Counted from the first letter of the stretch, positions 7,028 through 54,817 are shown. The stretch: 64,000 bases of DNA from Candidatus Zhuqueibacterota bacterium (GCA_014728085.1 WJMF01000230.1:5276-69275); one strand, 5' to 3'. A program made the numbers and translations. Notes: generated by a model from the letters alone, not told the origin.

Positions 7028-7081
7028 TTTTTTCATCTCCTTTTCCTGCATAAGAAATTAAAAATAATATAAAAATACAAT

Positions 7082-23166: not shown

Positions 23167-24462
23167 TTATCTCATCAGTCTTTGCACTTCATAAATTGAC
23201 ATGGGTGTTGCCAGGCGATAATCTCCGAATCCGGTTGGATCATAAAATTCAAAATAGCGATTGATACCGTAATAATGCCAGATTTCGTAGGGATATCTGC
23301 TGTATTTGGGAAAGACATTGCGATCGACCTCATCCGGCGCTGAAAGCAGGATATATACCATGCCTCTGTCGGTTTGCCATCCTTCGCGGTTCATGACGGA
23401 AAAATGACGGTTGGCATATTCAACCCGGGCATAGTGAGCTTCCATGGCTTCGTTTTGTTCCGTACCCGGCGTGGGGTCATGCGCTTTCCAGAAGGCCTTT
23501 AATGCTTGTGATTTTTTAGCATCCGGTGTTTTTTCGAGCTTTTTCCATTCTTCGCGGGTTGCAATATAGCGCAGCTGTTCAATCGCGGTGTTGATATCCG
23601 TGATTATTTTGGGCATGCCGTCCCATCGCACAAAAAAGATTTTTTTGTTTTTATCTTTACCTTTATCTGCGTTTGCCTCGATTTCCAGGGTATATTTGTC
23701 CACCAGCAGACTGTCGGCAGGAATTTTAAGAATTTCGGCTGATCTTAACCCATCAATGGTTTTGACATATTCGCCTGTAATGTTTTCTTTGGTTGAATGG
23801 CCATACATCGAGTATTTAATATCGACCTCAGTTTGGTTTTTCGGGTTATAGATTTCAAAATAGGCGAGTATTTCGCCGCGGAACCCTTTATCCTTGTCGC
23901 TGATAATCGGCATCGTATTCTGACTGGTAATCGAATCCGGATTGTCGGAGGATAAAAAGATAACGTCACTTAGTGCCAGATCTTCTTTCGCAAAGTTCTT
24001 GATCTTGATTTCACTGTCGTATTTGTTGCTACGGCCTGATTCCAGATCTTCAATCATAACGGAGATGTCATACTTGCCCGGATCAAGCTCAAACGATTGC
24101 TCGGAATGATGGTAATAAGCTCTTTTATTGGTCTGATCGTACTCTTTAACATAAACTTCCTCTTTCCATATTCTGCCGTCGATCTGTTCGCCGTCGTCCA
24201 GAATAATCGCAGAGAGCTCATATTCTCCTTCAAATCCGTCTCCGACTTTGACAAATTGTATCTCGTCGAATTCAACACTTGTATAGATATGCAGCAGGGA
24301 TTTGGAAAAATCGTTTTGCTTTGCCATAACGGCGGTATCTATATGAAAAGGCAATTTGTTTACATCATAGGATGTGCTCATTTCCGTCTGCGAGGCAAGT
24401 GAAAACGCCATTAACAAAACAATGATAAATATTACTTTATATGACATGAATATGCCTTTCAA
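23167..24462 (-). CDS. GWxTD domain-containing secreted protein
   Basis: Signal peptide; FWKAHDPTPGT...RVEYAN...GWQTDRGMVYI...EIWHY...GFGDY. Confidence 0.85.
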   Translation of the reverse strand: MKGIFMSYKVIFIIVLLMAFSLASQTEMSTSYDVNKLPFHIDTAVMAKQNDFSKSLLHIYTSVEFDEIQFVKVGDGFEGEYELSAIILDDGEQIDGRIWKEEVYVKEYDQTNKRAYYHHSEQSFELDPGKYDISVMIEDLESGRSNKYDSEIKIKNFAKEDLALSDVIFLSSDNPDSITSQNTMPIISDKDKGFRGEILAYFEIYNPKNQTEVDIKYSMYGHSTKENITGEYVKTIDGLRSAEILKIPADSLLVDKYTLEIEANADKGKDKNKKIFFVRWDGMPKIITDINTAIEQLRYIATREEWKKLEKTPDAKKSQALKAFWKAHDPTPGTEQNEAMEAHYARVEYANRHFSVMNREGWQTDRGMVYILLSAPDEVDRNVFPKYSRYPYEIWHYYGINRYFEFYDPTGFGDYRLATPMSIYEVQRLMR

Positions 24463-24683: not shown

Positions 24684-25964
24684 TCACGTTTTGGCGGCTC
24701 TGCCGATGAGATCATGATAATCTGCAGAGGTCACCTGAACATCGAGAAGCGTACCGGGAGAAAGGGGCTGGTAGAGAATTACACTATTATCGATTTCCGG
24801 TGCATCCCATTGCGTTCGCCCGGCGGAGATGCCATTTTCAGATTCATCGATGAGAACAGTAACTGTTTTGCCGATCAGCGATTCATTGAATTGGCGGTTG
24901 ATCTCTGCCTGGCGGTGCATGATTTTTTCCTGTCTTCTGATTTTTGTCTCCCGGCGCACCGAATCTGGCAGTTGATAGGCTCTGGTGTCTTCTTCATGTG
25001 AATAGGTAAAAACACCCAGCCTTTCAAATTTAAAATGGTTGATAAAGTCAAAAAGTTCCTGGAATTCTTTTTCCGTTTCGCCGGGATAGCCTGCGATCAG
25101 CGAGGTCCGCAGGGCCAGGTCGGGAATCCGCCGGCGTAATTTTTGCAAAAGTGTTGCGATCTGCTTCCGCGTCACGTTGCGACCCATTTGTTGCAAAATC
25201 CGGTTGTTGATGTGTTGGATGGGCAGGTCTATATAGTTAACGACTTTATCCAGTTCCGCGATACACTCGATCAGTTCGTCGTTCCAATGGGCCGGATGGG
25301 TATATAATAAGCGTATCCATCTGAGTTGCCCGATTCGGTTCAAGCCGGTGAGCAAGCCGGCGAGATTGGTACCGGCGCCGAGCTCATGTCCGTAAAACGT
25401 GGTATCCTGTGCCACCAGGATCAGCTCTTTGGCACCGGATTGCACCAGCTGTTCCGCCTCATCGAGGATTTCTTCGGGTAGCCGGCTGATATGATTGCCT
25501 TTAATCAGCGGAATCGCACAATAGGCGCATCGATTGCTGCAGCCCTTGGAGATTTCCAGATAGGCGTAGTGTTTCAATGTCAGTCGTTGACGGGGCTGTT
25601 GCGGGCCGGAGGGCTTTTTGATCAGGGTTAATAATTGCTGCGCTGTTATTTTGGGGTCTGTAGAGGTCAGACAGGCGTCGATTTCCGGAATTTCCCGGCA
25701 CAGGTCGTTTTGATAACGCTGTGGCAAACAGCCACTCACCCAGAGTTGATGCGAAGGGTGTTCTCGCTTCAGCCGGGCGATATTGAGGATGTAATCGATG
25801 GCTTGTTCTTTTGCAGAGTCGATAAACGCACAGGTGTTGACAAGCGTGACATCAGCGTTTTCGGGGCTGTCGCTAAATTCCACATGGGGTTTAATTATAC
25901 CGAGGATAATTTCAAGGTCGACTACATTTTTGGGACAACCCAGGTTTATAAAAGCCAGCTTCAC
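24684..25964 (-). CDS. rimO: Ribosomal protein uS12 methylthiotransferase
   Basis: LGCPKNVVD, NTCAFI, radical-SAM CSNRCAYC, YSHEE and a C-terminal TRAM domain (APEID). Confidence 0.93.
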   Translation of the reverse strand: MKLAFINLGCPKNVVDLEIILGIIKPHVEFSDSPENADVTLVNTCAFIDSAKEQAIDYILNIARLKREHPSHQLWVSGCLPQRYQNDLCREIPEIDACLTSTDPKITAQQLLTLIKKPSGPQQPRQRLTLKHYAYLEISKGCSNRCAYCAIPLIKGNHISRLPEEILDEAEQLVQSGAKELILVAQDTTFYGHELGAGTNLAGLLTGLNRIGQLRWIRLLYTHPAHWNDELIECIAELDKVVNYIDLPIQHINNRILQQMGRNVTRKQIATLLQKLRRRIPDLALRTSLIAGYPGETEKEFQELFDFINHFKFERLGVFTYSHEEDTRAYQLPDSVRRETKIRRQEKIMHRQAEINRQFNESLIGKTVTVLIDESENGISAGRTQWDAPEIDNSVILYQPLSPGTLLDVQVTSADYHDLIGRAAKT

Positions 25965-26884
25965 TGAAACAATGCCTCAACGAATTCACCCGGATCAAAG
26001 CGTTGCAGATCGTCCGGTTTTTCTCCGATACCGATATATTTAACCGGAACCTTGAGTTGTTTTTGTATCGAGAAGACGATACCGCCTTTGGCTGTGCCGT
26101 CGAGTTTGGTCAGTATGATACCGGTAACCCCGACTGCCTGCATAAAGGTGCGGGCTTGAGCCAGACCATTTTGGCCGGTATTGGCATCGATAACGAGAAG
26201 GATCTCATGCGGGGCACCTGGCATTGCTTTATCGAGTACGCGGTGTATCTTTTGCAACTCTTGCATCAAATTGGATTTTGTATGCAATCGACCGGCTGTA
26301 TCGATGATCAAGATATCTTTATGACGCGCTTTTGCGGCGTTGACGGCATCAAAAGCAACGGCTGCCGGGTCCCCTCCGGGAGAGGTTTTGATGATATCGG
26401 ACCGGACGCGTTCTCCCCAGATACTCAGCTGTTCGGTGGCGGCAGCCCTGAATGTGTCTGCTGCCGCCAACAAGACGTTATAGTTTTTTTGCTGATACCG
26501 GCCGGCGAGTTTTCCGATCGAAGTGGTTTTGCCGGTACCGTTCACGCCGATGACACTAATCACATGGGGTTTTGTATTTATAACGTTTTCAGGATCATTT
26601 GCGCTGACGGAACTGTTTAGTTCTTCGGCGAGGATAGCTTTAAACAGGTTGAAGACCTCTTCCTCATTATCGATTATGCCATCTTTATATTTTTCGCGTA
26701 ACCGTTCGATGAGATGTTCCGTGGTATCGAGCCCGACATCGGAAAGAATGAGCAGTTCTTCTATTTCATCGAGCGTATTCTCATCGATCCTGCTGGATGA
26801 TTTTAAAATACGGCCGATACCCTTGACCAGTCCGGTTCTTGTTTTTGACAATCCTTGTTGCAGTTTGGTGAATTTCTTCAGCAC
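25961..26884 (-). CDS. ftsY: Signal recognition particle receptor (NG domains only)
   Basis: GVNGTGKTT, DTFRAAA, DTAGR and TKLDGTAKGG. A GTG start at 26884 with an AAGGA RBS is preferred over TTG 26923. Confidence 0.95.
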   Translation of the reverse strand: MLKKFTKLQQGLSKTRTGLVKGIGRILKSSSRIDENTLDEIEELLILSDVGLDTTEHLIERLREKYKDGIIDNEEEVFNLFKAILAEELNSSVSANDPENVINTKPHVISVIGVNGTGKTTSIGKLAGRYQQKNYNVLLAAADTFRAAATEQLSIWGERVRSDIIKTSPGGDPAAVAFDAVNAAKARHKDILIIDTAGRLHTKSNLMQELQKIHRVLDKAMPGAPHEILLVIDANTGQNGLAQARTFMQAVGVTGIILTKLDGTAKGGIVFSIQKQLKVPVKYIGIGEKPDDLQRFDPGEFVEALFQ

Positions 26885-26897
26885 AAAACTATCCTTT

Positions 26898-27476
26898 CTA
26901 CCTTCCGGAATTGAATTTTTCAATTAAGACGCTTTTATAAATTCTAAAATAGGTTATGATGGAAAACGGAATCAGAATCGCCGAGATGATCATGACGTAG
27001 CGATTGTAGGGTTCCAGTTCGAGCATATAGAAGACGATCACCGCCAAAAAAGAAACCAGGGTGTATTTTCCCATCAGATTTGATTCTTTGACTTTCTGGA
27101 TTCGGGAGATAATATGCAGACTGGCGACAAGGATGAGAATATCTCTCGCGATGACCATAAAGACGTACCAGTAGGGAAGCCCTTTATAGGCTGCCAAAAA
27201 GAACATAATGACACCGACGGTGATTTTGTCGACAACGGGGTCGAGCATGCGGCCGAGTTCGGACCGCATTTTCAGTTTTCTGGCAAAATAGCCGTCAAAA
27301 TAGTCGGTTATGCCGGATAGGCAAAGGCATAATGTGGCCAGCAGGTCTGTTTTCATTGTATTTTTTGATATAAAATAGACGATTAAGGGCAGAAAGACCA
27401 GCCTTACGAGCGTAATCAGATTGGGTAATCCGAGGTTGTGTTTGTCTTTTTTTACCAAATCAAAAAATGCTTTCAT
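26898..27476 (-). CDS. pgsA: CDP-alcohol phosphatidyltransferase (PgsA-like)
   Basis: LPNLITLVR and DYFDGYFARKLKMRSELGRMLDPVVDK match the DG..AR...G...D...D motif. Confidence 0.8.
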   Translation of the reverse strand: MKAFFDLVKKDKHNLGLPNLITLVRLVFLPLIVYFISKNTMKTDLLATLCLCLSGITDYFDGYFARKLKMRSELGRMLDPVVDKITVGVIMFFLAAYKGLPYWYVFMVIARDILILVASLHIISRIQKVKESNLMGKYTLVSFLAVIVFYMLELEPYNRYVMIISAILIPFSIITYFRIYKSVLIEKFNSGR

Positions 27477-27485
27477 TTTTCCCCT

Positions 27486-28655
27486 TTATGTAAATAACTT
27501 GATGACATCAAGGATCAAAGATGGCTTTTTTACCAGGGCAACTTTGAAAATATTTACCAGTGTTCTTTTTTCCTCTGGTAACTTTGTCACGCCTTTCTCA
27601 ATATTTATCAGGTCTTCATCGGAGAGGTTATAGACAAATTCTTTTATTCTATAAAATTTCGCTAAATTTTTGCCCTCGGTTTTGTTGAAGGTTTCGGCAT
27701 AGTCGAGCAGGCGATTTTTGCTGACATTTTTTTCTTTTACCGCGGCAGCGGCGATTTCTCCCGCCAGTTTCCCTGCCGTCATGCCGCTGGCAATACCCCC
27801 GCCGGTAAGCGGATTGCTGTGTCTCGCGGCATCTCCGGTGAGCACGAGTCCGTCGGTCACGATATGCTTTAAGGGTTTGGAGGCGGTCACGCCCCCCAGG
27901 GAGGTGGTTAGGACAGAGGCTTGTGAAAAATGATGTTGCATAAATTCCATTAAATAGTTATAGGGAGATTTTTTACGGCAATACTCACCGGATATGCCCA
28001 GGCCGATATTGGCGATTTTATCGCCTTTGGGAAAAATCCACAAGTATCCACCCGGCGCCAGCTTGTGTGAAAAGTAAAGATGAATAGAGTCCGGATCGAT
28101 GTCAATATTCGCGGCGGTGACTTGTGCGCAGGTTTCCATGTCTTTAAGCGCGACATGTGTTTTCAGTCCGGCCCAGCGTCCCACTCTCGATTCCACCCCG
28201 TCGGCGCCGATCACGACATCCGCACGGATGGTTTTTTCTTCACCCAGATGGTTGACTTTGACTCCGGATATCCTATTCTCTTCTCTGACCAGGTCATACA
28301 CCCACGCCCGGGTGTGAACCTCTGCGCCCTGATCGGCCGCCATGCGGGCCAGATCGTAATCGAAGCGTTTGCGATGCAAGACATATCCGACCTCATCGGA
28401 TTGAATATTGAGCTGTTTGCCGCTTGGAGAATGGAAAACAACACCGGTGATCCGCCGTGCGATCCAGGCGTCCTGAACCGGTACGAGTTTTTCAATCGAT
28501 TTGGAATTGACGCCCTCTGCGCAGCGCACAGGCAGGCCGATATGGCTGTCTTTTTCCAAAAGCAGCACCGACACCCCGGCTTTGACACCCCAATAGGCCG
28601 CCATACTGCCGGCAGGTCCGGCTCCGACAACGATGATATCATATTTTGGCTTCAT
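27486..28655 (-). CDS. Geranylgeranyl reductase family FAD oxidoreductase (digeranylgeranylglycerophospholipid reductase-like)
   Basis: GAGPAGS, IGLPVRCAEG, PGGYLWIFPKG (PxxYxWxFP) and GDAARHSNPLTGGGI. True start MKPKYDIIV at 28655. Confidence 0.88.
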   Translation of the reverse strand: MKPKYDIIVVGAGPAGSMAAYWGVKAGVSVLLLEKDSHIGLPVRCAEGVNSKSIEKLVPVQDAWIARRITGVVFHSPSGKQLNIQSDEVGYVLHRKRFDYDLARMAADQGAEVHTRAWVYDLVREENRISGVKVNHLGEEKTIRADVVIGADGVESRVGRWAGLKTHVALKDMETCAQVTAANIDIDPDSIHLYFSHKLAPGGYLWIFPKGDKIANIGLGISGEYCRKKSPYNYLMEFMQHHFSQASVLTTSLGGVTASKPLKHIVTDGLVLTGDAARHSNPLTGGGIASGMTAGKLAGEIAAAAVKEKNVSKNRLLDYAETFNKTEGKNLAKFYRIKEFVYNLSDEDLINIEKGVTKLPEEKRTLVNIFKVALVKKPSLILDVIKLFT

Positions 28656-28830
28656 CTTCAGCCTCCAGGGCGTGGATGGGACATATCGCAATACATCGTT
28701 CACAGGCCGTACAGCGATCATATAGAATGTATAGAACGAATTCCCGCAGTTCGATGGCATCGGCCGGGCAAACCGCCACACAGGTGCCACAGTAATCGCA
28801 TTTGTCTGCATGATGTCGGATTGCAATCAT
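28639..28830 (-). CDS. 2x[4Fe-4S] ferredoxin
   Basis: CDYCGTCVAVCP and CTACERCIAICP; overlaps the reductase start by 17 nt. Confidence 0.9.
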   Translation of the reverse strand: MIAIRHHADKCDYCGTCVAVCPADAIELREFVLYILYDRCTACERCIAICPIHALEAEDEAKI

Positions 28831-28837
28831 ATCTGGC

Positions 28838-29788
28838 TCACTGGCATGGTTTGAGACTCGGATAATTCACCTGAAATCGTTTCTTATAATACCATTTGCA
28901 AAAAAAATAGATGAATATGATGATAAGCAAATAAAGCGGAAATCTGTAGCATATCATCAGAGACAAAAAGAGCGTTGCATATTTATTGGCTTCAAGAACG
29001 CGTTTGACGCTTTTGGTTTTCAGAGATACAACAAAAAACGGTACTGACAGTGCGGTGGGTAAAAGGACCACAATATCTTCAGCGACGGCTGCCAGTGCAA
29101 CCGCAACAACCATTAAAATCGTTCCGGCGATTAAAACGGGTTTGACACCGTGCTTGACGGCAATTGTAATTTTGCCGGCCAGGAGATCTCCCCCGACATC
29201 CGGAATTGTGGTAAAAAAATAGACTGCAAGAAAGCCGCTGATATATGGCAGAGCATGAAAGAGCAAGTTTGTATTGATTTCTCCGCTGATGTTCCATCCC
29301 ACGGTAAAAATCAATAATCCACCGACAAGATTGGCGAAAATACCGCCATACGGCCGGTTTTTCAGATGAAACGGGTTTCCGCTGTAAAGATAACCGGTGA
29401 CGAGATAAATCAAAACCATAATGGCAAAAAGATCATAACGCCCGAAAAAGAGCAATAAAATCGGACTGAGCATTAAAAGGATCATCTCCAGGTGGGCTGC
29501 TTGTTTTGGAATTGCCCCTGAAGCGATGAGATAGAGCTTGTCGTTTATTTTATCGGTTTCAACATCAAAGAGTTGATTCAAAATAAAAACGCTGCCCATC
29601 ATCAGGGTCAAAATCGCAATGACCAGTATCGGACTGATATCCCCGTGCTCCGCGGTCATACGCGCTGATTCTTTTGCCTGGGGGCCAAAGCGTTCCTGGG
29701 CCCAGAATCCTGCCAGGGAAACCGTCCACACCGGGAAAAAGAGTGTTGGTCGCAAAACAAAGAAATAATCAAGGGTTTTAAGCTTCAT
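28838..29788 (-). CDS. UbiA-family prenyltransferase (DGGGP synthase-like)
   Basis: LRP start, first Asp-rich motif NQLFDVETDKIN, YS...LK.RP, second motif IPDVGGD...TIAV, ~9 TM. Start MKLKTLDY at 29788 overlaps the purF 3' end. Confidence 0.85.
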   Translation of the reverse strand: MKLKTLDYFFVLRPTLFFPVWTVSLAGFWAQERFGPQAKESARMTAEHGDISPILVIAILTLMMGSVFILNQLFDVETDKINDKLYLIASGAIPKQAAHLEMILLMLSPILLLFFGRYDLFAIMVLIYLVTGYLYSGNPFHLKNRPYGGIFANLVGGLLIFTVGWNISGEINTNLLFHALPYISGFLAVYFFTTIPDVGGDLLAGKITIAVKHGVKPVLIAGTILMVVAVALAAVAEDIVVLLPTALSVPFFVVSLKTKSVKRVLEANKYATLFLSLMICYRFPLYLLIIIFIYFFCKWYYKKRFQVNYPSLKPCQ

Positions 29789-31193
29789 TTTGCTCGTGTT
29801 GGTATTTACCGATTTTATCTTCAATGGGAATGGGATATGTACCTGTAAAACAGGCTGTACAGAAACCACACCCATGTGGTTTAACGGATTCTAACAGACC
29901 TTCGTGCGACAAATAGTGCAGGGAATCGCAATCGAGATAGGTTTTAATATTTTCGATCGATTTATTGTTGGCAATGAGTTCTGCTTTGCTGGGAAAGTCC
30001 ATTCCATAGAAACAGGGAGAAACGATCGGTGGTGAACTTACCCGAACATGTACTTCTTTGGCGCCATTTTCGCGGATATGCTTAACCAGCTGTTTCAGGG
30101 TTGTACCCCGCACAATCGAATCCTCTACAACCACGACTCTGCGGCCGTCGAGGATTCCTTTCACGGCATTGAATTTGACTCTGACGCCGAAATCTCTCAT
30201 GTTTTGAGATGGATGTATAAATGTCCGGCCCACATAGTGATTTCTAATCAGCCCCAGCTCGAATTTTAGATTGGAACGCCTGGAATAGCCCAATGCTGCG
30301 GTATTGCTGGAATCGGGCACGGAAATGACAATATCGGCCGCCACATCTGATTCCAGAGCCAGAATTTTACCCAATTTTCGCCGCACCCGGTCAACATTAT
30401 CATTAAATATACGGCTATCCGGTCGGGCGAAATAGATGAGTTCAAAAATACACGAATAGCAGGGTTGTTGAGTCTGAAAGGGAAAGGCGGTGATCCCATT
30501 TTCATCGATTTTTATCAATTCACCCGGTTGAATTTCACGCACCAATTCCGCTTTCAACAGATCAAGGGCACAGGTTTCGGAGACGACGCAATAGGTGTTC
30601 TGTCGCTTGCCGATGCACAGGGGGCGCACACCATGCGGATCTCTGGCAGCATAAATGCCATCCCGTGTCAGCATCACCAGTGAATAGGCTCCGGTAATTT
30701 GCTTCAGGGCCTCGATGATGCGTTTAGAAATGGTCTCTTTATTTGAACACGCAATCAGATGGGGGATGATTTCCGTATCTGTGGTGGTTTGGAACAGGGA
30801 GCCGGTTTTTTCGAGTTGTTTACGAATGATACCGCTGTTGGTAAAATTACCGTTATGGGCGATGGCAAAAGGCCCCATCATATAGTTGTTGAAGGTCAGG
30901 GGTTGGGCATTGAGGGCCTGAGTGGATCCGGTGGTTGAGTAGCGATTGTGTCCTATAGCCCAGGTGCCTTTGAGTTGTTTAAATCTTTCCTGATCCGAGA
31001 ATACATCCGCAACCAGGCCTTGTCCGGTTTGTTTATGTAATTTACCGTCATAGCTGACGATACCGGCGCTTTCCTGGCCCCGGTGTTGCAGCGCATAGAG
31101 TGCCAGATAGGCCAAATGAGCGGCATCGGGTGTTCCGTAGATTGCGGTGACACCGCAATTGGATTTGGGTTTGTCAATTTTTTTCTTAGCCAT
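29778..31193 (-). CDS. purF: Amidophosphoribosyltransferase
   Basis: Propeptide then CG, LQHRGQESAG, GHNRYST, HNGN and VVEDSIVRGTT. Confidence 0.97.
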   Translation of the reverse strand: MAKKKIDKPKSNCGVTAIYGTPDAAHLAYLALYALQHRGQESAGIVSYDGKLHKQTGQGLVADVFSDQERFKQLKGTWAIGHNRYSTTGSTQALNAQPLTFNNYMMGPFAIAHNGNFTNSGIIRKQLEKTGSLFQTTTDTEIIPHLIACSNKETISKRIIEALKQITGAYSLVMLTRDGIYAARDPHGVRPLCIGKRQNTYCVVSETCALDLLKAELVREIQPGELIKIDENGITAFPFQTQQPCYSCIFELIYFARPDSRIFNDNVDRVRRKLGKILALESDVAADIVISVPDSSNTAALGYSRRSNLKFELGLIRNHYVGRTFIHPSQNMRDFGVRVKFNAVKGILDGRRVVVVEDSIVRGTTLKQLVKHIRENGAKEVHVRVSSPPIVSPCFYGMDFPSKAELIANNKSIENIKTYLDCDSLHYLSHEGLLESVKPHGCGFCTACFTGTYPIPIEDKIGKYQHEQNEA

Positions 31194-39688: not shown

Positions 39689-39885
39689 GCGAATTTACCG
39701 GTTGAAATTCGTATATAAGATATTAAAAAACAATCCATAGCAAAGGATGGATATAGCCGGTTCGGTGGCGTCCTGTCTTTTGCGAAATGTTTCAGTCTGC
39801 AACCCGGGTGTTTTGTGCTAATACATATTACGCGATATTCTGGTTTTAGCGGTGAGTATAGATTTGAACATTGCATGGAGCTCTA

Positions 39886-42800
39886 ATGGAACGCAAAAAT
39901 ATTTCGCTGGTCGTTGCCCTTGTCTTGCTTTTGGCAAGCACTTCCCTGACTTTTTCCCAATCCTCAGAGTATACTGATGATCCCGCTTACTGGGAGCGAA
40001 TAACCAGTCGAAACGAGCTTGAAATAAAGTACGAATCCTTTCCACATTATGACATCAAATCAAGGCTTGCAAAAAGCAATGCCTTTTTGTCTTCACTAAA
40101 CCCTGTTCAGCCGGTTATTCTGGATTTTTCTGAAAAAGCCCTTCTCGGAAGAATTACAGTGCAATTAAAGCCATCGCTGGCTGCTATCGATTCACTGACG
40201 GTTTCCGTCCGTATCCGCCAGGAAAGCAGCGTAAACGTACCTGTAATAACGGTTGCGGAAAGCGTTTTTGATGAATATGGCCGGGCGGTTCTGGAGATCC
40301 CGGGCAAATATACCGAGGAAGTTCATCTCAGCCTCAATAAATCGGTATCGGCGGATTCTCCTTTTGAGACGATAAGCGTTGAAAGTATAACATTGAATGA
40401 AAATTTTCGTCTGCTTTTGGTTGGCGATTCCGTTACCCACGGCTTTGTGGGATCGAGTACCGGCCTGGGATTCAGACAGATATTATATAACGGACTGCGG
40501 GCTATCCGCCGCGATATCGATTTTGTCGGCTCTTATGGAGATCCTCCCTATGAGGGACATTTTTTGGGGGGTACAAAGGTTCGGGATTTTTTGCCCAACC
40601 GGTACGAGGAGATGGATATGAAATTTACCATGAATACTTCTCGGCCACATATGGTTGCGATTCATTTGGGGACTAATGATCTCAACAACAACGCCACCAC
40701 CGGTCCCTACAGAGACCAAAATGGATTTACAGAAACCACATCCGGTCATCTCGGAATTTTGATTGATTATCTGCTCAAATGGCATAACGGAGAAAATGGG
40801 GATGAATTGCAATACGTGGTTGTCAGCTTGATCATCCCTGCTGAACGGCGTGAAGCACAGCAAGTTTTATTCAACAATGAACTCAGCAAAATGGTGCACG
40901 ATTTTCGCAATGGTGTTCTGACGGGTCAACCGGAGCCGGTTTTTGTCTGCGATCATTACAGCCGCTTTGAAGAAAATCCGTTTTTATGGATCGATGACTG
41001 GCGTGATATTATGTTCGATAAACTCCATCCCAATGATCGCGGATACGAAATTATGGCTGAGACCTATCTGGATTGTATCAGCGAGCTTATCATCGGACCA
41101 AAGTGGTTCAGTGATTTATCCTGGGAAATGGGTATCGCTGCTCAGGATAAATACTGGAGTGCTCAGGGAATCGCCGTCGCCGATATTACCGGCGATGGTC
41201 TGGATGATATTTACATGAGCCGTGCTTCCGAAAAGGCCGAGGATCCGCGTGATTTTTTCTTTGTCAACAAGTCGACGATTCCGCTTGCTGACCGGTCGGT
41301 TGACTATCAAATCAACGATCTCGGTGTCAGCCGCGGTGTTGTTTTTGCCGATATTGATAACGACGGCGATTTTGATCTTTTTAATGGCCAGGAAGCGGGA
41401 CAAAATCATCTGTATGAGAATAACGGTGCCTCGGCTTTTGTGAATATTTCTTCCCAGGCGGGTATTGAAGTATTGCCCGATCGAAAAACCACCTCGGTAC
41501 TGGCTTTTGATTGTGAAAATGATGGAGATATCGATCTCTTTTGCGTTAATTCACAGGATCGGAACGAACAATATCTAAATAATGGAGCCGGCCGTTTTAA
41601 ACGCGTTAATTATGGTTTTAACGATGCAGAAGAGCCAAATATACACAGCATGTCAGGTTCTGCCGCTGATTTTGATATGGATGGCGATGTGGATGTTTAT
41701 ATTGCCAAACGAAACGGTGCCAACAAGCTATATATCAATGACGGCAGCGGTCATTTTCAGGACAGAGCCGTCCAGCTCGGGGTGGATTTGTCTGCTGTCG
41801 ATTGTAATGGCGTGATATGGTCTGATCTGGATAACGATGCGGATCTCGATTTGCTGGTTACCACAAACAGTGATGAAAAAATTCCGGACATAAAACTGCA
41901 GCTGTTCAGAAATAACGGCAATGGTACCTTTACGGGCATGAGCGATCAGGTGAATATTTTTTACCATGGCTATTCAGCTCTGGTTGCCGATTTTGACAAT
42001 GATGGTGATATGGATATCATCACCACCCATGAAGGGACGGTGGGTGAATTTTGGCGCAATGACGGGGACTGGACCTTCCGTGAGGTTGAGGATACCGGTG
42101 CGGAAATTTTTAACGGTGATGTGCGCGCGGCCACGGTTTTCGACGCTGATAATGACGGCGACCAGGACCTCCTGGCCATGCGCAACGATTGTCCCAATAT
42201 ATTTCTGCGCAACAATCTGGATAACAATTATAATTATCTGAAAGTCAAAGCCTATGGGCCAAATGGTAATATTGGCGGCTTTGGCACCAAAGTATGGTTA
42301 TATCAAAACGGTAAACTGGGAAATCCACAGGCATTGCTCGGCTACCGCGAAATTATGTCCGCGACCGGGCATCAATCGCAATACTCGCCGACGTTGCATT
42401 ATGGACTTGCTTTGGAAGACCATTGCGATCTGCTCGCCCGCTTTACGGATGGCACCTGGCTTGCTCTGCGCAATGTCGGTGTGAATCAGACGCTGGTCAT
42501 TCGGCCGGACAAACCCAGCGGCCAGGCAGGAGAGCCCGCGATTGTAGACCTTTACAGCGGTGATGGCCAGCAAAAAATGGTGGGGGAGATGTTCGACGAG
42601 CCTTTTGTGGTTCAGGTTCGCGATGGTGAGGGGCAGCCGGTTAAAGACGTTGCTGTGGAGTTTGGCATAAAAACCGGAAATGCCCAAATCGTCGAGCCGG
42701 TCGTCAATCAGGAGAATATATGGAAGGAGATGGAAAACGCCGCTCTTGACAATACGGTTCGCTGGGTCTATGATGCCACCAGCTCCGGTAACGGCTTTAT

Positions 42801-45800
42801 TTGGGTTCCTGATTTCCTCGGCAATAGCGGTGAGGCAGTGGTAACGGCAAGCATCGAATCGGGCCGTGACTATGTGCTTTGGATTAGAGCATCGCATTCC
42901 AATCAAAGCAGGTCAGTAACTCTGCAGGTGGATAATTACCCGGTGAGATCTGTTGAGGTCAGTTCCGAGAACTGGAAATGGTACCGGGTGAGCAATACAT
43001 CGGGCGGCCCCGAGCTCTATTCGCTTTCTGCCGGGGATCACAATGTTGTATTGAATTTTGGTGATTTTATCCTTATAGACCGGATTCTGCTGAGCCCGGA
43101 TATCAATTACACACCGCTGGGAACCGGTGATAGCGGCGAGAATCCCGATCTGACCGATATCAATGGCCTGGCCGGACGTATGGTACAGCTGGGGACCAGT
43201 TCGGGGCTCGTTGAGATTGAGGCCAGCGCAAGGATTCATGGCAGTCATATCAGCGGCAGCCCGGCACTCTTTACGGCCACTGCCCGGCCCGGCCCGGCCG
43301 CCAAATTTCATACGGAAGGAAGCGGGCAGATTGGTTCTGTGGGGGAACCTTTGGAACAACCCTTTACGGTAATTATCCAGGATGTTTTCAGCAACTATAT
43401 CAAAGATGTTCCGGTTACCTTTCAGGTTACCGCAGGAGGGGGTACGATTTTGCCTGACGGGGAGGTGATGACCAACGCCCTCGGTCGCGCTTCTACCGTG
43501 CTCACGCCAGGTGACCAGAGTTCCCTTCAGCGGGTGAGTGCAACCATAACGGGTCTTAGCACGGATCCGATTGTTTTTCAGGCTGCCGTTCCCGGTGTCG
43601 CCAGCGAGATAAACTATATTTCCGGAACGGGACAGGCAGACACTGTCGGCAATATGCTGGCAGATCCCCTTTCTGTTCGTATCCTGAACGATCAAGAACA
43701 ACCGGTGCCATCTTATCCGGTCAAATATAAAATTGTTCAGGGCGATGGCAGACTCTCCTTTAGCCGCCAGGGCAAAGTTTCCGACACGCTTTTGCAGGTA
43801 TTATCCAATGAGAACGGCTATGCAAATATTTTCTGGACGATGGGGCCCGAAAGCGGGGAACAGCGGGTTCAGGCCATTGCACAGGGATTAACCGGTTCGC
43901 CGGTTCTCTTCCGCGCAACAGCGACCCCCCGGCACGCATATCGTTTAATGCCTGTCTCCGGCAACGACCAGTCGGCTCCACTGCTTAGTTTGCTGCCCAA
44001 TCCTTTTGTGGTTCGGGTTCTGGACGAGTTTCACAATCCGGTATCCAACCATTCGGTGACCTTTACCTGTGCGAGCGAGAATGGAATTTTTCCACGCAGC
44101 AATTCCGCGACCTATTCGACCCTATCCGATAGTAATGGCTATGTCAGCACTCAGTTTCGCCTCGGTGAAGATGTTGGCGAGAACCTCTACCACATAAAAG
44201 TGAATTCTTCGCATCAACAACAACCGTTACAAAACACTCCTGTCGATTTTTATGCCAGCGGCAAGGCCGGTTTGCCATCCAGGGCGTTTAAATTGACCCA
44301 GGACGGACAGGTGGATACGGTTAACCATATTCTCGATCAACCGTTTCGCGTTCGCATTACAGACCAGTTTTCCAATCCGGTCGAGGATTATGTGGTGACG
44401 TTTAGTGTCATTAAGGGTGGTGGTTCTATTGATGGCCAACAGGAGGTGACGCGCCAGACCAACCTCAACGGTATTGCAGAGGCTCGCCTGAAACTGGGTT
44501 CCGCAGCCGGTAGTGAAAATCATCATGTTGCAGCTTTTTTTACCGGCATTACACCCAATGAAATTATCTTCAAGGCTTCTGCCGTGGCGGATTATCCGGT
44601 TGCTCTCGAGTATGTCTCCGGAAATGATCAAAAATCTCCTTTCCAGACCACCTTACCCATGCCATTTGTCGTTCGTGTCGAAGATCAGTTCAAAAACGGT
44701 GTTGCAGGTCATCCTGTTCTGTTTACCGTTCAGGGCGATCAGGGACATTTTGGCGGTATGGAATCCATTACCGTGAACACAGATGAATTCGGTGACGCAC
44801 AAGCATACCTGACATTGGGTGAAGAAATAGGCGACTCTAACAATGTGGTATTGGCTTCCAGCCTTTATCAGGGGGTACCGTTATCTTCGCCGGTACAGTT
44901 TTATGCCTCCACATCACCGGCTTATCCGGTCAGACTCATTCCTATCAGTGATGACAAAAATATACTGGGCGCTGCAAACAGAGAGTTGCCGGATCCGGTT
45001 ATCGTTAAGGTCCTGGATGAGGAGGACAAAGGGGTACCCGGAATTGCAGTCAATTTTACCATCGAGTCGGGTGACGGATATTTTGCTCCTGAGCAGCAAA
45101 ATGCCACCTCTGTGACGACTGATAAGGAGGGCTTGTCGAGGGCGCGGTGGGTATTGGGATCTGCTGACCAGATTCAAAAAATTTCCGCTGCTGTTATATA
45201 TAATAACGCGCATCTGATCAACTCGCCGAAAGCGTTTCAGGCGGTTGCGATTGAAACCCGTGCCAAGATGATAGAATTGGTCTCTGAAAATGAATTCAAT
45301 GGCCAGGCCGGCAAAGCGTTACAAGACAGTCTTGTCGTACGAATATTGGATGAGTTTGGACAACCGCTGAAGAATCACCCGGTTCGTTTTGAAATTCAAC
45401 AGGGTGATGCAACCCTCACCGCAGAGGGGGCCGGGTCATTGCTCGTTTATTCTGATGAAGAGGGACTGGCCAGATCGGGTCTGATTTTAGGCGGTACTGC
45501 AGGGTCCAATACCTGTGTGGTTTACGCCCGTTCCAGCAGTGCCCAGGGTACGCCGCTTACGGGTTCTCCGGTCCTTTTTTCTGTTGATGTTGTCGCCGGT
45601 GATCCCGACATGAGCGAATCATCGATAAGCTCCACATCGCTGGTCCCCTTGAACGGTGCTTCCAAAGCCGAGGTGGAGGTGCTTCTGCGGGATCGTTTTG
45701 GTAACCCTGTTGCCAATCGCACTGTAGAGCTGGTTTCCAATCCGGCGGGATTGATTTTCAGCGCTGAAAACAGTACGACGGATTTTACCGGTAAATATTA

Positions 45801-48255
45801 TGCCGAGGCTAGTGCGGTCAACAGTGGCGATTTTCAGATTCGCGCTCGCGATCAGGAAAGCGGTTTATGGTTGCAGGAATCCGCATTGGTAACTTTTTTC
45901 GAGTCCGATGCGCAAAAATTCTTTTTCGCCGGTGGCAACAATCAGGTCGGATATCCCCATTCCCTGCTTGAAGAGATGTTGCAGGTCAGAGTCCTCGATG
46001 TCAATGATCGACCGGTGTCCAATTATCCGGTTGTCTTTACTGCCAATGCAGACAGTATCGCCACCATATATGATGATACGCTTTATACGGATAAACAGGG
46101 CATAGGGAAAACCGCTATATTGATCGGTCCTTACAGTGGAACGGTAACCGTCGCAGCCCATGCCGCAGGCCTGAAACCGGATCACTTGATTTTCAATCAG
46201 ACCATTCGTTCCGTTTCCCGGGTGGTTCTCGTTAATGAGGGTGAGGACCGTATCAGTAAAAACATCGATGATATTGTACCGGATACACTCCGGATACGGA
46301 TTCAGGATATGCAGGGACGCCCTGTGGGTGCTACCAGGCTGCTGTTCAGTACTGAAGCATCTGATATTGCCCGGCCGCAATCTGAAGAGAGGATCAGCGA
46401 TAAAGAAGGTCGTCTAACAATGCCACTGATATTTGGTCCACAGACCGGCACGACCCGTATACTGGTTAAACCCGATGCATCACTGGGGGCGGCACTGGCG
46501 ATAGATGTTGAGGTGAGTGCGGGAGCACCACATGAACTGCAGGTATATGGGGGGAATGAACAATCCGTTGTGGTGAATAATAATTTGGAAGAAGCGCTTC
46601 AGGTCAGGGTGGTTGATAAAGGCGGTCATCCGTTGCAGGAGGTGGGAGTGATTTTTTCCGTTGAGCAGGGATTTGCCGTTTTCCTCGATGAAACCAGGCA
46701 GGTTTCAGACCAGCAGGGGATCACGGCAACCCGGATGCGTATGGGAACACTTTCGGGACGAACCGTTATTTTGGCACGGCTGGAAGATCAACCGACTATC
46801 TCTGCGGCTTTTGTCTGTCATGGCCTGCCGGACGCACCTTATGAGCTTAAAAGCATTCTGGGTGATAAACAGGTTGGCATAGCCGGTCATAAATTAAATC
46901 TGGATCTTAAAGTCCAGATCCGCGATAAATACGGTAATGGAATACCACAAGCTTCTGTTTCTTTTATGCCGCAGACGGATTGCGGTAAAACCTATCCTTC
47001 CGGAACGGTTTTGAGCGACAGCAATGGTATTGCTGCCGTCAGCTGGGTACTGGGTCCTAAACTGGGACTGCAATCGATAGATGTGAGAAAGGAAAATCTG
47101 GTCAACTCGCCGATACAATTCACCGCCAATGCGATACCCAACAATGCACCCGTTATCGATATACCGGATCAATTCGTGCTGGATGAAAACGAGCCGTTTC
47201 AGTTTGATATTTTCGTTACAGATGAGGAAAACGATCCATTTTCAATTTTTGTACCGGAGATGCCTGATCGGGCCTATATCGATTCCATGACATTTTACTG
47301 GCAGCCCGGTTTCGATCAGGCCGGTTCTCACCGGCTGGTTTTTATTGCTCAGGACAGCGGCGGAGCAAAAAGTGAAAAGAGCGTTACCTTTTCAGTCAAT
47401 AATGTCAATCGTCCGCCCTATATTATCGATTCCCGAAGCGTTCCGGTGAATCGCAATATCGGAAGCATTAAAAACAAGTGGCCGATTGATTTTCATGTTG
47501 AAGCCAAGGACCCGGATGAGGATTTTTTGCACTATTTATGGATGGTCAATGGTGTAAAAATCGGTGCTACTGCAGATTTTCGTTTTGAAGCGCAGCTCTA
47601 CAGCGGAGGGGACAAGATAGTGCAGGTGCTGGTCTTCGATGCCCATGATACGGTCGGCACCTCCTGGCAGCTCGATCTACTGACGCCTGTAGAGTTAACT
47701 TCATTTACCGCCACCTTTGAGCCGTTTAACGGCATTACGCTGGCCTGGGAGACACGTCTTCAACGCCAAACATTGGGATATTATCTCTATCGTTCCGATC
47801 AGCCGGATGAGAATTTTACCTTGATCAGTGAACTGATCGAGCCCAATGATGAAGGGAAATATGTATATGAGGATATTGCTGATATTGATCATCGGGTCTA
47901 TTATCTCCTGAAGGATATGCAAATTGATGGTGTGATAAACGAACATCCTGTCATATCGGTTGAGCCGATGCTGCCGGACGATTTGGAACTGGCACAGAAT
48001 TATCCAAATCCCTTTAATCCGCAAACCCATATCCGTTTTGCTCTGCCTGAGCCGGCTTTTGTCAGTCTGAGGATATATAATATCAGAGGACATCAGGTCA
48101 TGAGCCTGGCGGAAGGCGAGCGTAAAGCCGGGTATCACAGCGTCAACTGGAATGGGCGAAATACACAGAACAAACCGGTTGCTGCGGGTGTCTATTACTA
48201 TGTTTTGGATACACCTCTAGAGAGGCGGGTAAAAAAGATGGTGCTGATTCGCTAG
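39886..48255 (+). CDS. Giant secreted multidomain protein: SGNH hydrolase + FG-GAP propeller + ASPIC/UnbV + ~13 Big_1 Ig repeats + CBM-like insert + Ig/cadherin-like + C-terminal FlgD/T9SS-like domain
   Basis: GGAG RBS and signal peptide; GDSVT/GTND/DKLHPN; seven D.D.DGD.D repeats; repeated SG..Q...PF.V.V.D...PV units; PVELTSF and QNYPNPFNP. Confidence 0.9.
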   Translation: MERKNISLVVALVLLLASTSLTFSQSSEYTDDPAYWERITSRNELEIKYESFPHYDIKSRLAKSNAFLSSLNPVQPVILDFSEKALLGRITVQLKPSLAAIDSLTVSVRIRQESSVNVPVITVAESVFDEYGRAVLEIPGKYTEEVHLSLNKSVSADSPFETISVESITLNENFRLLLVGDSVTHGFVGSSTGLGFRQILYNGLRAIRRDIDFVGSYGDPPYEGHFLGGTKVRDFLPNRYEEMDMKFTMNTSRPHMVAIHLGTNDLNNNATTGPYRDQNGFTETTSGHLGILIDYLLKWHNGENGDELQYVVVSLIIPAERREAQQVLFNNELSKMVHDFRNGVLTGQPEPVFVCDHYSRFEENPFLWIDDWRDIMFDKLHPNDRGYEIMAETYLDCISELIIGPKWFSDLSWEMGIAAQDKYWSAQGIAVADITGDGLDDIYMSRASEKAEDPRDFFFVNKSTIPLADRSVDYQINDLGVSRGVVFADIDNDGDFDLFNGQEAGQNHLYENNGASAFVNISSQAGIEVLPDRKTTSVLAFDCENDGDIDLFCVNSQDRNEQYLNNGAGRFKRVNYGFNDAEEPNIHSMSGSAADFDMDGDVDVYIAKRNGANKLYINDGSGHFQDRAVQLGVDLSAVDCNGVIWSDLDNDADLDLLVTTNSDEKIPDIKLQLFRNNGNGTFTGMSDQVNIFYHGYSALVADFDNDGDMDIITTHEGTVGEFWRNDGDWTFREVEDTGAEIFNGDVRAATVFDADNDGDQDLLAMRNDCPNIFLRNNLDNNYNYLKVKAYGPNGNIGGFGTKVWLYQNGKLGNPQALLGYREIMSATGHQSQYSPTLHYGLALEDHCDLLARFTDGTWLALRNVGVNQTLVIRPDKPSGQAGEPAIVDLYSGDGQQKMVGEMFDEPFVVQVRDGEGQPVKDVAVEFGIKTGNAQIVEPVVNQENIWKEMENAALDNTVRWVYDATSSGNGFIWVPDFLGNSGEAVVTASIESGRDYVLWIRASHSNQSRSVTLQVDNYPVRSVEVSSENWKWYRVSNTSGGPELYSLSAGDHNVVLNFGDFILIDRILLSPDINYTPLGTGDSGENPDLTDINGLAGRMVQLGTSSGLVEIEASARIHGSHISGSPALFTATARPGPAAKFHTEGSGQIGSVGEPLEQPFTVIIQDVFSNYIKDVPVTFQVTAGGGTILPDGEVMTNALGRASTVLTPGDQSSLQRVSATITGLSTDPIVFQAAVPGVASEINYISGTGQADTVGNMLADPLSVRILNDQEQPVPSYPVKYKIVQGDGRLSFSRQGKVSDTLLQVLSNENGYANIFWTMGPESGEQRVQAIAQGLTGSPVLFRATATPRHAYRLMPVSGNDQSAPLLSLLPNPFVVRVLDEFHNPVSNHSVTFTCASENGIFPRSNSATYSTLSDSNGYVSTQFRLGEDVGENLYHIKVNSSHQQQPLQNTPVDFYASGKAGLPSRAFKLTQDGQVDTVNHILDQPFRVRITDQFSNPVEDYVVTFSVIKGGGSIDGQQEVTRQTNLNGIAEARLKLGSAAGSENHHVAAFFTGITPNEIIFKASAVADYPVALEYVSGNDQKSPFQTTLPMPFVVRVEDQFKNGVAGHPVLFTVQGDQGHFGGMESITVNTDEFGDAQAYLTLGEEIGDSNNVVLASSLYQGVPLSSPVQFYASTSPAYPVRLIPISDDKNILGAANRELPDPVIVKVLDEEDKGVPGIAVNFTIESGDGYFAPEQQNATSVTTDKEGLSRARWVLGSADQIQKISAAVIYNNAHLINSPKAFQAVAIETRAKMIELVSENEFNGQAGKALQDSLVVRILDEFGQPLKNHPVRFEIQQGDATLTAEGAGSLLVYSDEEGLARSGLILGGTAGSNTCVVYARSSSAQGTPLTGSPVLFSVDVVAGDPDMSESSISSTSLVPLNGASKAEVEVLLRDRFGNPVANRTVELVSNPAGLIFSAENSTTDFTGKYYAEASAVNSGDFQIRARDQESGLWLQESALVTFFESDAQKFFFAGGNNQVGYPHSLLEEMLQVRVLDVNDRPVSNYPVVFTANADSIATIYDDTLYTDKQGIGKTAILIGPYSGTVTVAAHAAGLKPDHLIFNQTIRSVSRVVLVNEGEDRISKNIDDIVPDTLRIRIQDMQGRPVGATRLLFSTEASDIARPQSEERISDKEGRLTMPLIFGPQTGTTRILVKPDASLGAALAIDVEVSAGAPHELQVYGGNEQSVVVNNNLEEALQVRVVDKGGHPLQEVGVIFSVEQGFAVFLDETRQVSDQQGITATRMRMGTLSGRTVILARLEDQPTISAAFVCHGLPDAPYELKSILGDKQVGIAGHKLNLDLKVQIRDKYGNGIPQASVSFMPQTDCGKTYPSGTVLSDSNGIAAVSWVLGPKLGLQSIDVRKENLVNSPIQFTANAIPNNAPVIDIPDQFVLDENEPFQFDIFVTDEENDPFSIFVPEMPDRAYIDSMTFYWQPGFDQAGSHRLVFIAQDSGGAKSEKSVTFSVNNVNRPPYIIDSRSVPVNRNIGSIKNKWPIDFHVEAKDPDEDFLHYLWMVNGVKIGATADFRFEAQLYSGGDKIVQVLVFDAHDTVGTSWQLDLLTPVELTSFTATFEPFNGITLAWETRLQRQTLGYYLYRSDQPDENFTLISELIEPNDEGKYVYEDIADIDHRVYYLLKDMQIDGVINEHPVISVEPMLPDDLELAQNYPNPFNPQTHIRFALPEPAFVSLRIYNIRGHQVMSLAEGERKAGYHSVNWNGRNTQNKPVAAGVYYYVLDTPLERRVKKMVLIR

Positions 48256-54757: not shown

Positions 54758-54817
54758 ATACTTTTTGATTTTCCTGGTGCATCAACGCGGCAAAGTGGAC
54801 GCATTTTGAATTTTTTT

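Follow-up and report, generated by a model that had tools for sequence, protein, structure and literature searches.

Whether bacteria naturally make archaeal-type or mixed membranes is a live question in the discussion of the 'lipid divide', and the genetic case so far consists of homologues of geranylgeranylglyceryl phosphate synthase (GGGPS) and digeranylgeranylglyceryl phosphate synthase (DGGGPS). A 64,000-nt stretch of DNA from Candidatus Zhuqueibacterota bacterium (GCA_014728085.1 WJMF01000230.1:5276-69275), here called the window, raises the question what a UbiA-family prenyltransferase, a ferredoxin (Fdx) and a geranylgeranyl reductase (GGR) do together in a bacterium. Coordinates are positions in this window, unless one of the related loci (L numbers) is named. 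The initial annotation had read these three genes and the adjacent gene for a CDP-alcohol transferase as the late steps of an archaeal-like ether-lipid pathway. The saturation part of that reading stood up to analysis, the ferredoxin-GGR pair being of archaeal type; the assignment of the UbiA protein as DGGGPS and of the CDP-alcohol transferase as a dedicated head-group enzyme did not. As judged from profiles and alignments, the UbiA protein belongs to a discrete, previously uncharacterized clade of the superfamily, for which we coin the name UbiAw, and the trio UbiAw-Fdx-GGR is the functional core of the gene block. We propose, with about as much belief as doubt, that UbiAw and GGR act in the synthesis of saturated isoprenoid membrane lipids alongside GGGPS and DGGGPS.

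Membership of the UbiA superfamily is clear from the PF01040 score (85.1 bits, cut-off 34.2) and from an AlphaFold2 model with the UbiA fold (predicted local distance difference test score 90.6), which matches UbiA-family structures only. The best structural matches were the DGGGPS of Methanocaldococcus jannaschii (MjDGGGPS) and AfUbiA of Archaeoglobus fulgidus, with template modeling scores of about 0.64-0.72, followed by ApUbiA, UBIAD1 and the decaprenyl-phosphate phosphoribosyltransferase (DPPR synthase). The catalytic motifs are present as N71-Q72-x2-D75-x3-D79, Y135...K143 and D197-x3-D201, and N71, D75, D79, Y135, K143, D197 and D201 are invariant in 26 aligned UbiAw sequences. The same alignment gives the invariant patterns N-Q-x2-D-x3-D-x2-N-x-K-L, Y135...K143 and T-x3-D-x2-G-D, and two clade-specific ends, an N-terminal LDYFFVLRPTLFFPVWT and a C-terminal KWYYxxRFxxxYP tail. 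The conserved residues correspond to N62, D66xxxD70, Y125...K130 and motif 3 of MjDGGGPS, the importance of which was shown by mutagenesis (PMC9385802). Because of this match UbiAw is predicted to be an intact Mg2+/diphosphate-binding membrane prenyltransferase that should be active.

The shared catalytic residues do not make UbiAw a DGGGPS. On the DGGGPS models PRK12882, PRK12883 and PRK12884 the window protein scored 31.8, 20.7 and 47.8 bits against cut-offs of 296, 353 and 269, and a genuine Poribacteria-type DGGGPS (from L006) gave 240, 210 and 254 bits. BLASTP against canonical DGGGPS returned 27% identity over 180 residues (E 6e-5). In a neighbor-joining tree of UbiA families (300 bootstraps, small reference set), UbiAw formed a clade with 86% support and canonical DGGGPS from M. 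jannaschii and bacteria another with 99%, while a sister relationship of the two was found in 1% of replicates. The deep nodes of this tree, such as UbiAw with AfUbiA (49%) or with MenA (34%), were poorly supported and were not relied on. These results contradict the initial annotation, in which the protein is the DGGGP synthase responsible for the second ether bond, and so does its occurrence beside canonical DGGGPS in Poribacteria, which marks it as an additional enzyme. By these measures UbiAw is not an orthologue of DGGGPS.

Archaeal DGGGPS (MjDGGGPS, PDB 6m31/7bpu) and its bacterial homologues, annotated as geranylgeranylglycerol-phosphate geranylgeranyltransferase, have in common with UbiAw the UbiA fold of nine transmembrane helices, the N...DxxxD, Y...K and DxxxD motifs and a gene neighborhood with Fdx-GGR, in Poribacteria also with GGGPS. 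On the other hand, identity is only about 15-21%, the clades are separate, and UbiAw has an N-terminal part that is 35-40 residues longer as well as its conserved C-terminal tail.

Family profiles further delimit the clade. Members reached at least 249 bits on the UbiAw profile and the next-best protein, AfUbiA, 62 bits; outsiders included canonical DGGGPS (39-57 bits), ChlG (46 bits) and, from Escherichia coli, MenA (15 bits), CyoE (8.5 bits) and UbiA (7.5 bits). UBIAD1 and ApUbiA gave no sequence match to UbiAw at E<1. No NCBIfam equivalog came near its cut-off with the window protein: homogentisate phytyltransferase (HPT) reached 41 bits against 226, ChlG 40 against 313, BchG 40 against 212, the MenA models 20-32 against 264-555 and DPPR synthase 20 against 207. 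The grouping with quinone or heme prenyltransferases that would have spoken against an ether-lipid role was thus not seen. No family test places UbiAw among the DGGGP synthases or among the prenyltransferases of quinone, heme or chlorophyll synthesis.

AfUbiA (PDB 4tq3-4tq6) is the best sequence-profile match to UbiAw (61-62 bits) and equal-best by fold, and both proteins lack an Asp after the motif-1 Asn (NA in AfUbiA, NQ in UbiAw). They differ in that identity is about 21%, the grouping in the tree is weak, and AfUbiA lacks the C-terminal tail but carries an insertion behind motif 1. Since we know of no established substrate or function for AfUbiA, the match transfers no function to UbiAw.

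The genomic setting of UbiAw was surveyed in species-representative genomes, which gave 70 loci; the counts that follow are over evaluable loci. These loci are labeled KSB1/Zhuqueibacterota, Calditrichota/Caldithrix, Marinimicrobia, Zixibacteria and Electryonea, with a few dubiously labeled metagenome-assembled genomes (MAGs), and members from WOR-3 and Poribacteria were found by protein searches. KSB1, Calditrichota and Marinimicrobia have the order purF-UbiAw-Fdx-GGR, continued by pgsA-like-ftsY-rimO in most KSB1 and Calditrichota genomes. L042, a MAG from the genus Caldithrix, is among the carriers of the cluster. The gene directly upstream of UbiAw was purF in 45 of 63 loci, Fdx-GGR followed directly downstream in 42/61 (KSB1, Calditrichota and Marinimicrobia), and a CDP-alcohol transferase gene stood after the Fdx-GGR position in 37/60. 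Synteny across relatives therefore shows that the arrangement is not due to chance. GGR without a CDP-alcohol transferase was present at the locus in 12 genomes. The reverse, a CDP-alcohol transferase without Fdx-GGR, was observed in seven KSB1-type genomes (L031, L033, L035, L037, L038, L064 and L070), with the order purF-UbiAw-pgsA-like-ftsY. In L011 a rubrerythrin gene (L011:5267-5770) separates purF from UbiAw, and L016 has a similar gap of about 600 nt at this place.

Zixibacteria have a different order, rpsB-tsf-pyrH-frr-uppS-cdsA-UbiAw, so that UbiAw directly follows the gene for CDP-diacylglycerol synthase. An example is L057:7726-12125 (chromosome OY970208.1), with the same order in L056, L063 and L068 and no GGR gene nearby. 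The radical-SAM gene after UbiAw in Zixibacteria was considered as a lipid-modifying enzyme and rejected, the product being an AmmeMemoRadiSam enzyme.

The setting in Poribacteria-type genomes is wholly different. Here the order is bamA-ompH-lpxD-(deacetylase)-UbiAw-canonical DGGGPS-(SpoU)-Fdx-GGR-PcrB/GGGPS, which places the UbiAw clade inside a GGGPS-DGGGPS-Fdx-GGR cluster and supports a role in lipid synthesis. A metagenome scan with canonical DGGGPS yielded 45 Poribacteria-type loci, which were de-replicated at 90% identity. Among the 16 evaluable clusters UbiAw and GGR were both present in 12 and both absent in four, with no discordant case, where presence and absence refer to the locus. 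The four clusters lacking both genes read lpxD-DGGGPS-SpoU-(PcrB), and L005/L006 provide one further concordant case. Within a bona fide GGGPS/DGGGPS cluster, UbiAw is thus an additional gene whose presence tracks that of the reductase. Two genes that lie between the two UbiA genes of L006 were also inspected; one encodes a PgaC/HpnI-like glycosyltransferase of family GT2 and the other a 571-aa CehA/McbA hydrolase, and neither was informative.

The reductase itself is a clear member of the GGR family, with 240 bits on TIGR02032 (cut-off 158.8) and 93 bits on GGR_cat (PF22578, cut-off 27). Its translation contains PVRCAEG with the catalytic Cys, PGGYLWIFP, LTGD and RKRFD, in agreement with the published motif definitions (catalytic Cys, PxxYxWxFP, LxGD, RxxFD; PMC10821996). 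The best specific models were archaeal: 262 bits against 780 for the Thermoplasmatales digeranylgeranylglycerophospholipid (DGGGPL) reductase and 190 against 580 for the next, with the Halobacteria model at 92 against 700. Although archaeal models are its best specific matches, the protein lies below all archaeal equivalog cut-offs. Scores were 75 bits against 700 for MenJ, 127 against 343 for BchP/ChlP and 56 against 505 for ChlP. The best solved relative is the DGGGPL reductase of Thermoplasma acidophilum (PDB 3oz2, 237 bits over about 366 residues), and the Sulfolobus GGR follows with about 102 bits. The earlier description of the reductase as an archaeal-type GGR rather than a MenJ or BchP is borne out by these scores, and the protein can be classed, from its motifs and model matches, as an intact archaeal-type flavin prenyl reductase.

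In the 70 species-level genomes no locus had ferredoxin or GGR without the other, and the two were adjacent in 42/42. In loci without a separate ferredoxin gene, fusion proteins of about 470-490 aa carry a 2x[4Fe-4S] domain at the N-terminus of GGR (L110:1493-2956, L111:8856-10268, L115:8773-10233 and L127:2966-4393). Because it is always adjacent to GGR and in some relatives fused to it, the ferredoxin is regarded as a dedicated partner, and a role as presumed electron donor of a ferredoxin-dependent isoprenoid reductase is well supported. Archaeal GGRs such as those of T. acidophilum (Ta0516-type, 3oz2) and Methanosarcina acetivorans have the same motifs and a small 4Fe-4S ferredoxin gene directly beside them, and the M. 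acetivorans enzyme depends on the ferredoxin encoded there (reviewed in PMC10821996); Isobe 2014, as referenced in a citing paper, is a further source for the archaeal pairing. The window GGR differs from archaeal DGGGPL reductases in being bacterial and below the archaeal equivalog cut-offs.

Many Poribacteria-type GGR genes have an in-frame TGA at the codon of the catalytic Cys (PVR*AEG instead of PVRCAEG), with the reading frame conserved on both sides. The site is L082:12142-12144 and recurs at the same position in L088, L090, L097, L098, L102, L108, L112, L116, L119, L124 and L130. A stem-loop follows about 11 nt downstream of the TGA; its stem shows compensatory changes between loci, and fold z-scores alone were not significant. 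These genes probably encode a selenocysteine-containing geranylgeranyl reductase.

Archaeal-type lipid genes in Fibrobacterota-Chlorobiota-Bacteroidota (FCB) bacteria, their Euryarchaeota-like GGRs and the GGR-ferredoxin pairs of archaea are already known. There are KSB1, Calditrichaeota and Zixibacteria genomes that individually contain homologues of both GGGPS and DGGGPS (Villanueva et al., 2021, supplement, PMC7852524); Marinimicrobia have both, but in separate genomes, and co-localization was reported only for Cloacimonetes (PMC7852524). Coleman et al. (2019) found GGGPS in a KSB1 MAG, and GGGPS and an annotated DGGGPS in Caldithrix abyssi. The surveys agree with the statement of the initial annotation that some FCB bacteria carry GGGP and DGGGP synthases. 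With a BLASTP E-value of 6e-5, UbiAw would probably have escaped the homology criteria of these surveys, which agrees with the Poribacteria-type clusters in pointing to UbiAw as an addition to DGGGPS and not a replacement for it. When the Poribacteria DGGGPS served as query in our own search for homologues, all proteins obtained were of Poribacteria type, which is uninformative on canonical DGGGPS in KSB1. One of the closest described systems is that of Candidatus Cloacimonetes, which likewise belongs to the FCB superphylum and carries genes for isoprenoid ether lipids; Euryarchaeota-related GGRs were noted there too, and archaeol with a phosphatidylglycerol (PG) head group, made via bacterial CdsA and PgsA, was observed. 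The study concerns co-localized GGGPS and canonical DGGGPS, and describes neither the UbiAw clade nor a UbiA-Fdx-GGR operon (PMC7852524). In the searchable literature, which is incomplete, we found no description of the UbiAw clade, of a bacterial UbiA-Fdx-GGR operon or of the five-gene Poribacteria cluster, and descriptions of KSB1 and of a cultured Marinimicrobia isolate contained no ether-lipid, isoprenoid or quinone data.

The CDP-alcohol transferase is less closely tied to the trio. It carries the motif DYFDGYFAR-x8-G-x3-D-x3-D and scored 100.1 bits on the pgsA model TIGR00560 (cut-off 109.1), with 103.6 bits for its L001 relative. The next-best models were ClsA (83 against 240) and archaetidylinositol-phosphate synthase, and the set cannot separate this PgsA-like protein from an archaetidylglycerol-phosphate synthase. 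Most simply, it would be the bacterial-type phosphatidylglycerol phosphate synthase of the host. The initial annotation took it as the head-group part of an archaeal-like module, a claim that does not fit an ordinary bacterial PgsA-like protein that is absent from the Marinimicrobia loci and several KSB1 loci; its linkage is lineage-specific. Since bacterial PgsA accepts CDP-archaeol, with PG-archaeol formed in E. coli (PMC7852524), co-transcription with the PgsA-like gene is nevertheless compatible with a lipid role, for which it is weak evidence.

If UbiAw and GGR act in saturated isoprenoid lipid synthesis, the ferredoxin would pass electrons to GGR, which would hydrogenate geranylgeranyl chains while they are part of the diphosphate donor or once they are on the lipid. 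UbiAw would transfer a C20 prenyl group, possibly in a partly reduced phytyl form, onto a lipid acceptor, most probably one based on glycerol phosphate such as (reduced) geranylgeranylglyceryl phosphate or a lyso-phospholipid. A head group of the phosphatidylglycerol type would be attached afterwards by CdsA and the PgsA-like enzyme. The use of a phytyl-type donor or a reduced acceptor would explain why UbiAw is needed only where GGR is present. From comparative genomics we infer that the saturated chains are phytanyl or phytyl and that canonical GGGPS and DGGGPS are encoded elsewhere in the genome. The recurrent neighbors of UbiAw from phospholipid synthesis are cdsA, pgsA-like, DGGGPS and GGGPS. 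A more specific version, which is possible and offered tentatively, is that UbiAw is a third, GGR-obligate prenyltransferase of bacterial archaeal-type lipids, either a phytyl/phytanyl-specific ether synthase acting on reduced intermediates or an enzyme that alkylates acyl-glycerol-phosphate.

Several observations weigh against a role in saturated lipid synthesis. The acceptor of UbiAw is purely inferred, and phytylated pigments and quinones are likewise made by combining a GGR with a UbiA-family enzyme. No GGGPS (queries: Bacillus subtilis PcrB, identical to PDB 3vzx, and then the group-II PcrB of L082) and no canonical DGGGPS was found within 10 kb of UbiAw in the FCB loci, GGGPS also being absent from that distance in the window, in a search of every open reading frame (ORF) of the window and 81 related loci. 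The 64-kb window as a whole contains no gene for GGGPS, canonical DGGGPS, glycerol-1-phosphate dehydrogenase or geranylgeranyl diphosphate synthase; the absence of GGGPS and CarS/CdsA had been pointed out in the initial annotation and is correct. UbiAw can exist without an adjacent GGR, as it does in the seven KSB1-type genomes, Zixibacteria and WOR-3. The adjacency in FCB genomes counts for less than it seems, much of the synteny (purF...ftsY...purN-purH) being that of unrelated housekeeping genes that are inherited together. The four Poribacteria-type clusters that lack both genes may be one lineage, and the co-variation may rest on few evolutionary events.

The alternative favored by the initial annotation, that UbiAw is a divergent DGGGP synthase in an operon for ether-bond formation, saturation and head-group addition, appears rather unlikely. 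The closest solved folds are indeed MjDGGGPS and AfUbiA, DGGGPS does much better on the UbiAw profile (39-57 bits) than MenA, UbiA and CyoE, and the motif-1 region, NQLFDVETDKIN...ASG, resembles the D-x-E-x-D-x-x-N...SG of the DGGGPS/ChlG type. Moreover, UbiAw occupies the slot upstream of Fdx-GGR that canonical DGGGPS holds in L006, and it could be an isozyme with another donor or acceptor saturation state. Yet the protein fails all DGGGPS models, forms a separate clade with 1% support for DGGGPS as sister, and has canonical DGGGPS as its immediate neighbor in 12 or more locus clusters, and the phyla that carry it are reported to hold canonical DGGGPS homologues too. The separate clade argues for a different acceptor, since the grouping of UbiA enzymes reportedly follows their acceptors (Hemmi, 2004, as cited in PMC9385802). 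By analogy, UbiAw and GGR might instead make a phytylated or otherwise saturated-prenyl compound outside the glycerolipids, for example a quinone-like or other aromatic cofactor, with GGR supplying phytyl diphosphate; this, too, we consider unlikely. Chlorophyll, tocopherol and phylloquinone are known to be made on this principle, by a GGR teamed with a UbiA-family transferase, and the strict co-variation of UbiAw and GGR would fit donor supply. The weak best NCBIfam matches include homogentisate phytyltransferase (41 bits) and ChlG/BchG (40 bits), the motif start NQ rather than ND is presumably typical of homogentisate phytyltransferases, the neighbor-joining tree puts AfUbiA and E. coli MenA nearest (34-49% support), and some IMG annotations name UbiAw members MenA or UbiA. 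This reading has to contend with the absence of quinone, pigment and aromatic-precursor genes from the window and about 150 related loci, with a profile score of 15 bits for E. coli MenA and no match for UBIAD1 at E<1, with recurrent neighbors that are phospholipid genes (cdsA, pgsA-like, DGGGPS, PcrB), and with a GGR that is nearest to lipid reductases and not to ChlP/BchP or MenJ. Phototrophs likewise tie a GGR-family reductase (ChlP/BchP) to a UbiA-family transferase (ChlG, HPT or the phylloquinone MenA), but the window proteins score far under the respective cut-offs, pigment and tocopherol genes are missing nearby, and the host lineages are not phototrophs. Photosynthetic (BchG/BchP) and tocopherol functions were accordingly rejected on model scores and gene context.

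Two further explanations are much less probable. UbiAw would act on a polyprenyl phosphate in the manner of DPPR synthase, giving a lipid-linked sugar carrier for the cell envelope that GGR saturates as in dolichol, if one gave weight to the weak DPPR synthase matches (models 20-32 bits, structure 8j8j 36 bits) and to neighbors such as uppS in Zixibacteria, lpxD, polysaccharide deacetylase and the GT2 glycosyltransferase in Poribacteria, and purF, which uses phosphoribosyl pyrophosphate, in FCB genomes. These matches are the weakest of the superfamily and cover the N-terminal half only, uppS-cdsA and bamA-skp-lpxD are ancient housekeeping clusters, nothing ties purF functionally to UbiA, and the tightest co-varying partners are GGR, DGGGPS and PcrB, all of which makes the idea very improbable. 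Hardly more probable is that the four genes are neighbors by inherited synteny only, with UbiA, GGR and the PgsA-like protein serving unrelated pathways. The functionally unrelated purF, ftsY, rimO, purN and purH are conserved in order equally well, and the CDP-alcohol transferase and Fdx-GGR are each absent from the locus in some genomes, as mere synteny would allow. It would not explain why the UbiAw/GGR pairing recurs in the wholly different Poribacteria setting, with 16/16 evaluable clusters concordant, and holds in Marinimicrobia despite different downstream genes.

To the GGGPS and DGGGPS homologues on which the genetic case has been built, the locus adds a ready-made bacterial saturation module, Fdx-GGR, that is conserved across several phyla and whose position among housekeeping genes suggests constitutive use and not a relic. 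It also reveals a distinct prenyltransferase clade that accompanies the reductase and, in Poribacteria, belongs to a complete GGGPS-DGGGPS-GGR cluster. Should UbiAw act on a glycerolipid, bacteria would possess a pathway step that is absent from archaea; if UbiAw is indeed a third prenyltransferase of such lipids, several FCB phyla and Poribacteria would make saturated isoprenoid membrane lipids by a non-archaeal route, and alkylation of acyl-glycerol-phosphate would give natural hybrid ester/ether isoprenoid phospholipids. If the acceptor is not a glycerolipid, the analysis puts right the over-annotation as DGGGPS that such UbiA genes readily invite.

The organization of the block was established by reading all junctions base by base (Table 1). 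The tight packing of four co-oriented genes described in the initial annotation was confirmed, no overlap or gap at these junctions exceeding 17 nt, and the run extends into ftsY and rimO, giving seven co-oriented genes on the minus strand, purF-UbiAw-fdx-ggr-pgsA-like-ftsY-rimO. All four reported junctions are as described: the purF stop at 29778 and the UbiAw ATG at 29788 overlap by 11 nt, 7 nt separate the UbiAw stop (28838) from the ferredoxin ATG (28830), the ferredoxin stop (28639) and the GGR ATG (28655; MKPKYDIIVVGAGPAG) overlap by 17 nt, and the gap of 9 nt between the GGR stop (27486) and the ATG of the CDP-alcohol transferase (27476) contains AGGGG. The mechanical GGR ORF from 28826 is an upstream extension; homologues have 388-392 aa, and the start was therefore taken as 28655. 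For ftsY, a TTG start at 26923 gives a 26-nt overlap and a GTG start at 26884 a 13-nt gap, and GTG is the more likely start by its better match to homologue lengths. The rimO start (25964) overlaps the ftsY stop, and rimO closes the tight block. Judged by its gene layout, the block is a co-transcribed housekeeping unit of a KSB1-type FCB-group bacterium, in which purF is a conserved neighbor to which we ascribe no functional role. In 24.3-32.4 kb, scans for promoters and terminators found no more of them than in shuffled sequence and were uninformative.

Table 1. Genes of the minus-strand block, in order of transcription, with the evidence for each assignment (aa, amino acids).
Feature	Coordinates	Strand	Evidence
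purF, amidophosphoribosyltransferase, first gene of block	29778..31193	-	TIGR01134 496.5 bits, cut-off 350
UbiAw, 316-aa membrane prenyltransferase (predicted)	28838..29788	-	PF01040 85.1 bits, cut-off 34.2
63-aa 2x[4Fe-4S] ferredoxin	28639..28830	-	Fer4 55 bits, two CxxCxxCxxxCP motifs
Archaeal-type geranylgeranyl (prenyl) reductase GGR, flavoprotein, 389 aa	27486..28655	-	TIGR02032 240 bits, GGR_cat 93
CDP-alcohol phosphatidyltransferase, PgsA-like, 192 aa	26898..27476	-	PF01066 117 bits
ftsY, signal recognition particle receptor	25961..26923	-	TIGR00064 359 bits, cut-off 261
rimO-like radical-SAM methylthiotransferase	24684..25964	-	ORF; syntenic L001/L002 genes with UPF0004, Radical_SAM, TRAM_2

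The named relatives of the window UbiA and GGR belong to candidate division KSB1, with Calditrichaeota and Marinimicrobia more distant. The nearest public MAGs, L012 and L013 (CAZSOP010000013.1 and CAZMUU010000061.1; 94-95% protein identity), are labeled 'uncultured Cytophagia bacterium'. This label, which many other loci also carry, looks like a placeholder or an error, named homologues all being from KSB1, Calditrichaeota or Marinimicrobia. The remaining genes of the window are housekeeping genes, among them mreB, a class A penicillin-binding protein gene, purN, purH, pdxS/pdxT, a 2-oxoacid dehydrogenase complex and priA; the 64 kb hold no quinone, pigment, GGGPS, polyprenyl synthase or CdsA/CarS gene. 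Six ORFs of 165-540 aa had no Pfam match at E<1e-5 (3120-4742, 6374-7051, 7212-7808, 7846-8904, 53345-54355 and 54452-54949). Directly downstream of rimO, 23167-24462 on the minus strand encodes a GWxTD-domain protein that is kept in all KSB1-type loci, L001, L002 and L007 among them, and is duplicated in L007. Finally, the plus-strand ORF at 39871-48255 encodes a protein of 2794 aa with a GDSL lipase domain, FG-GAP/VCBS repeats, many Big_1/invasin Ig-like domains and a C-terminal FlgD_ig/CHU_C type IX secretion domain, a giant secreted surface protein that fits an FCB-group host.

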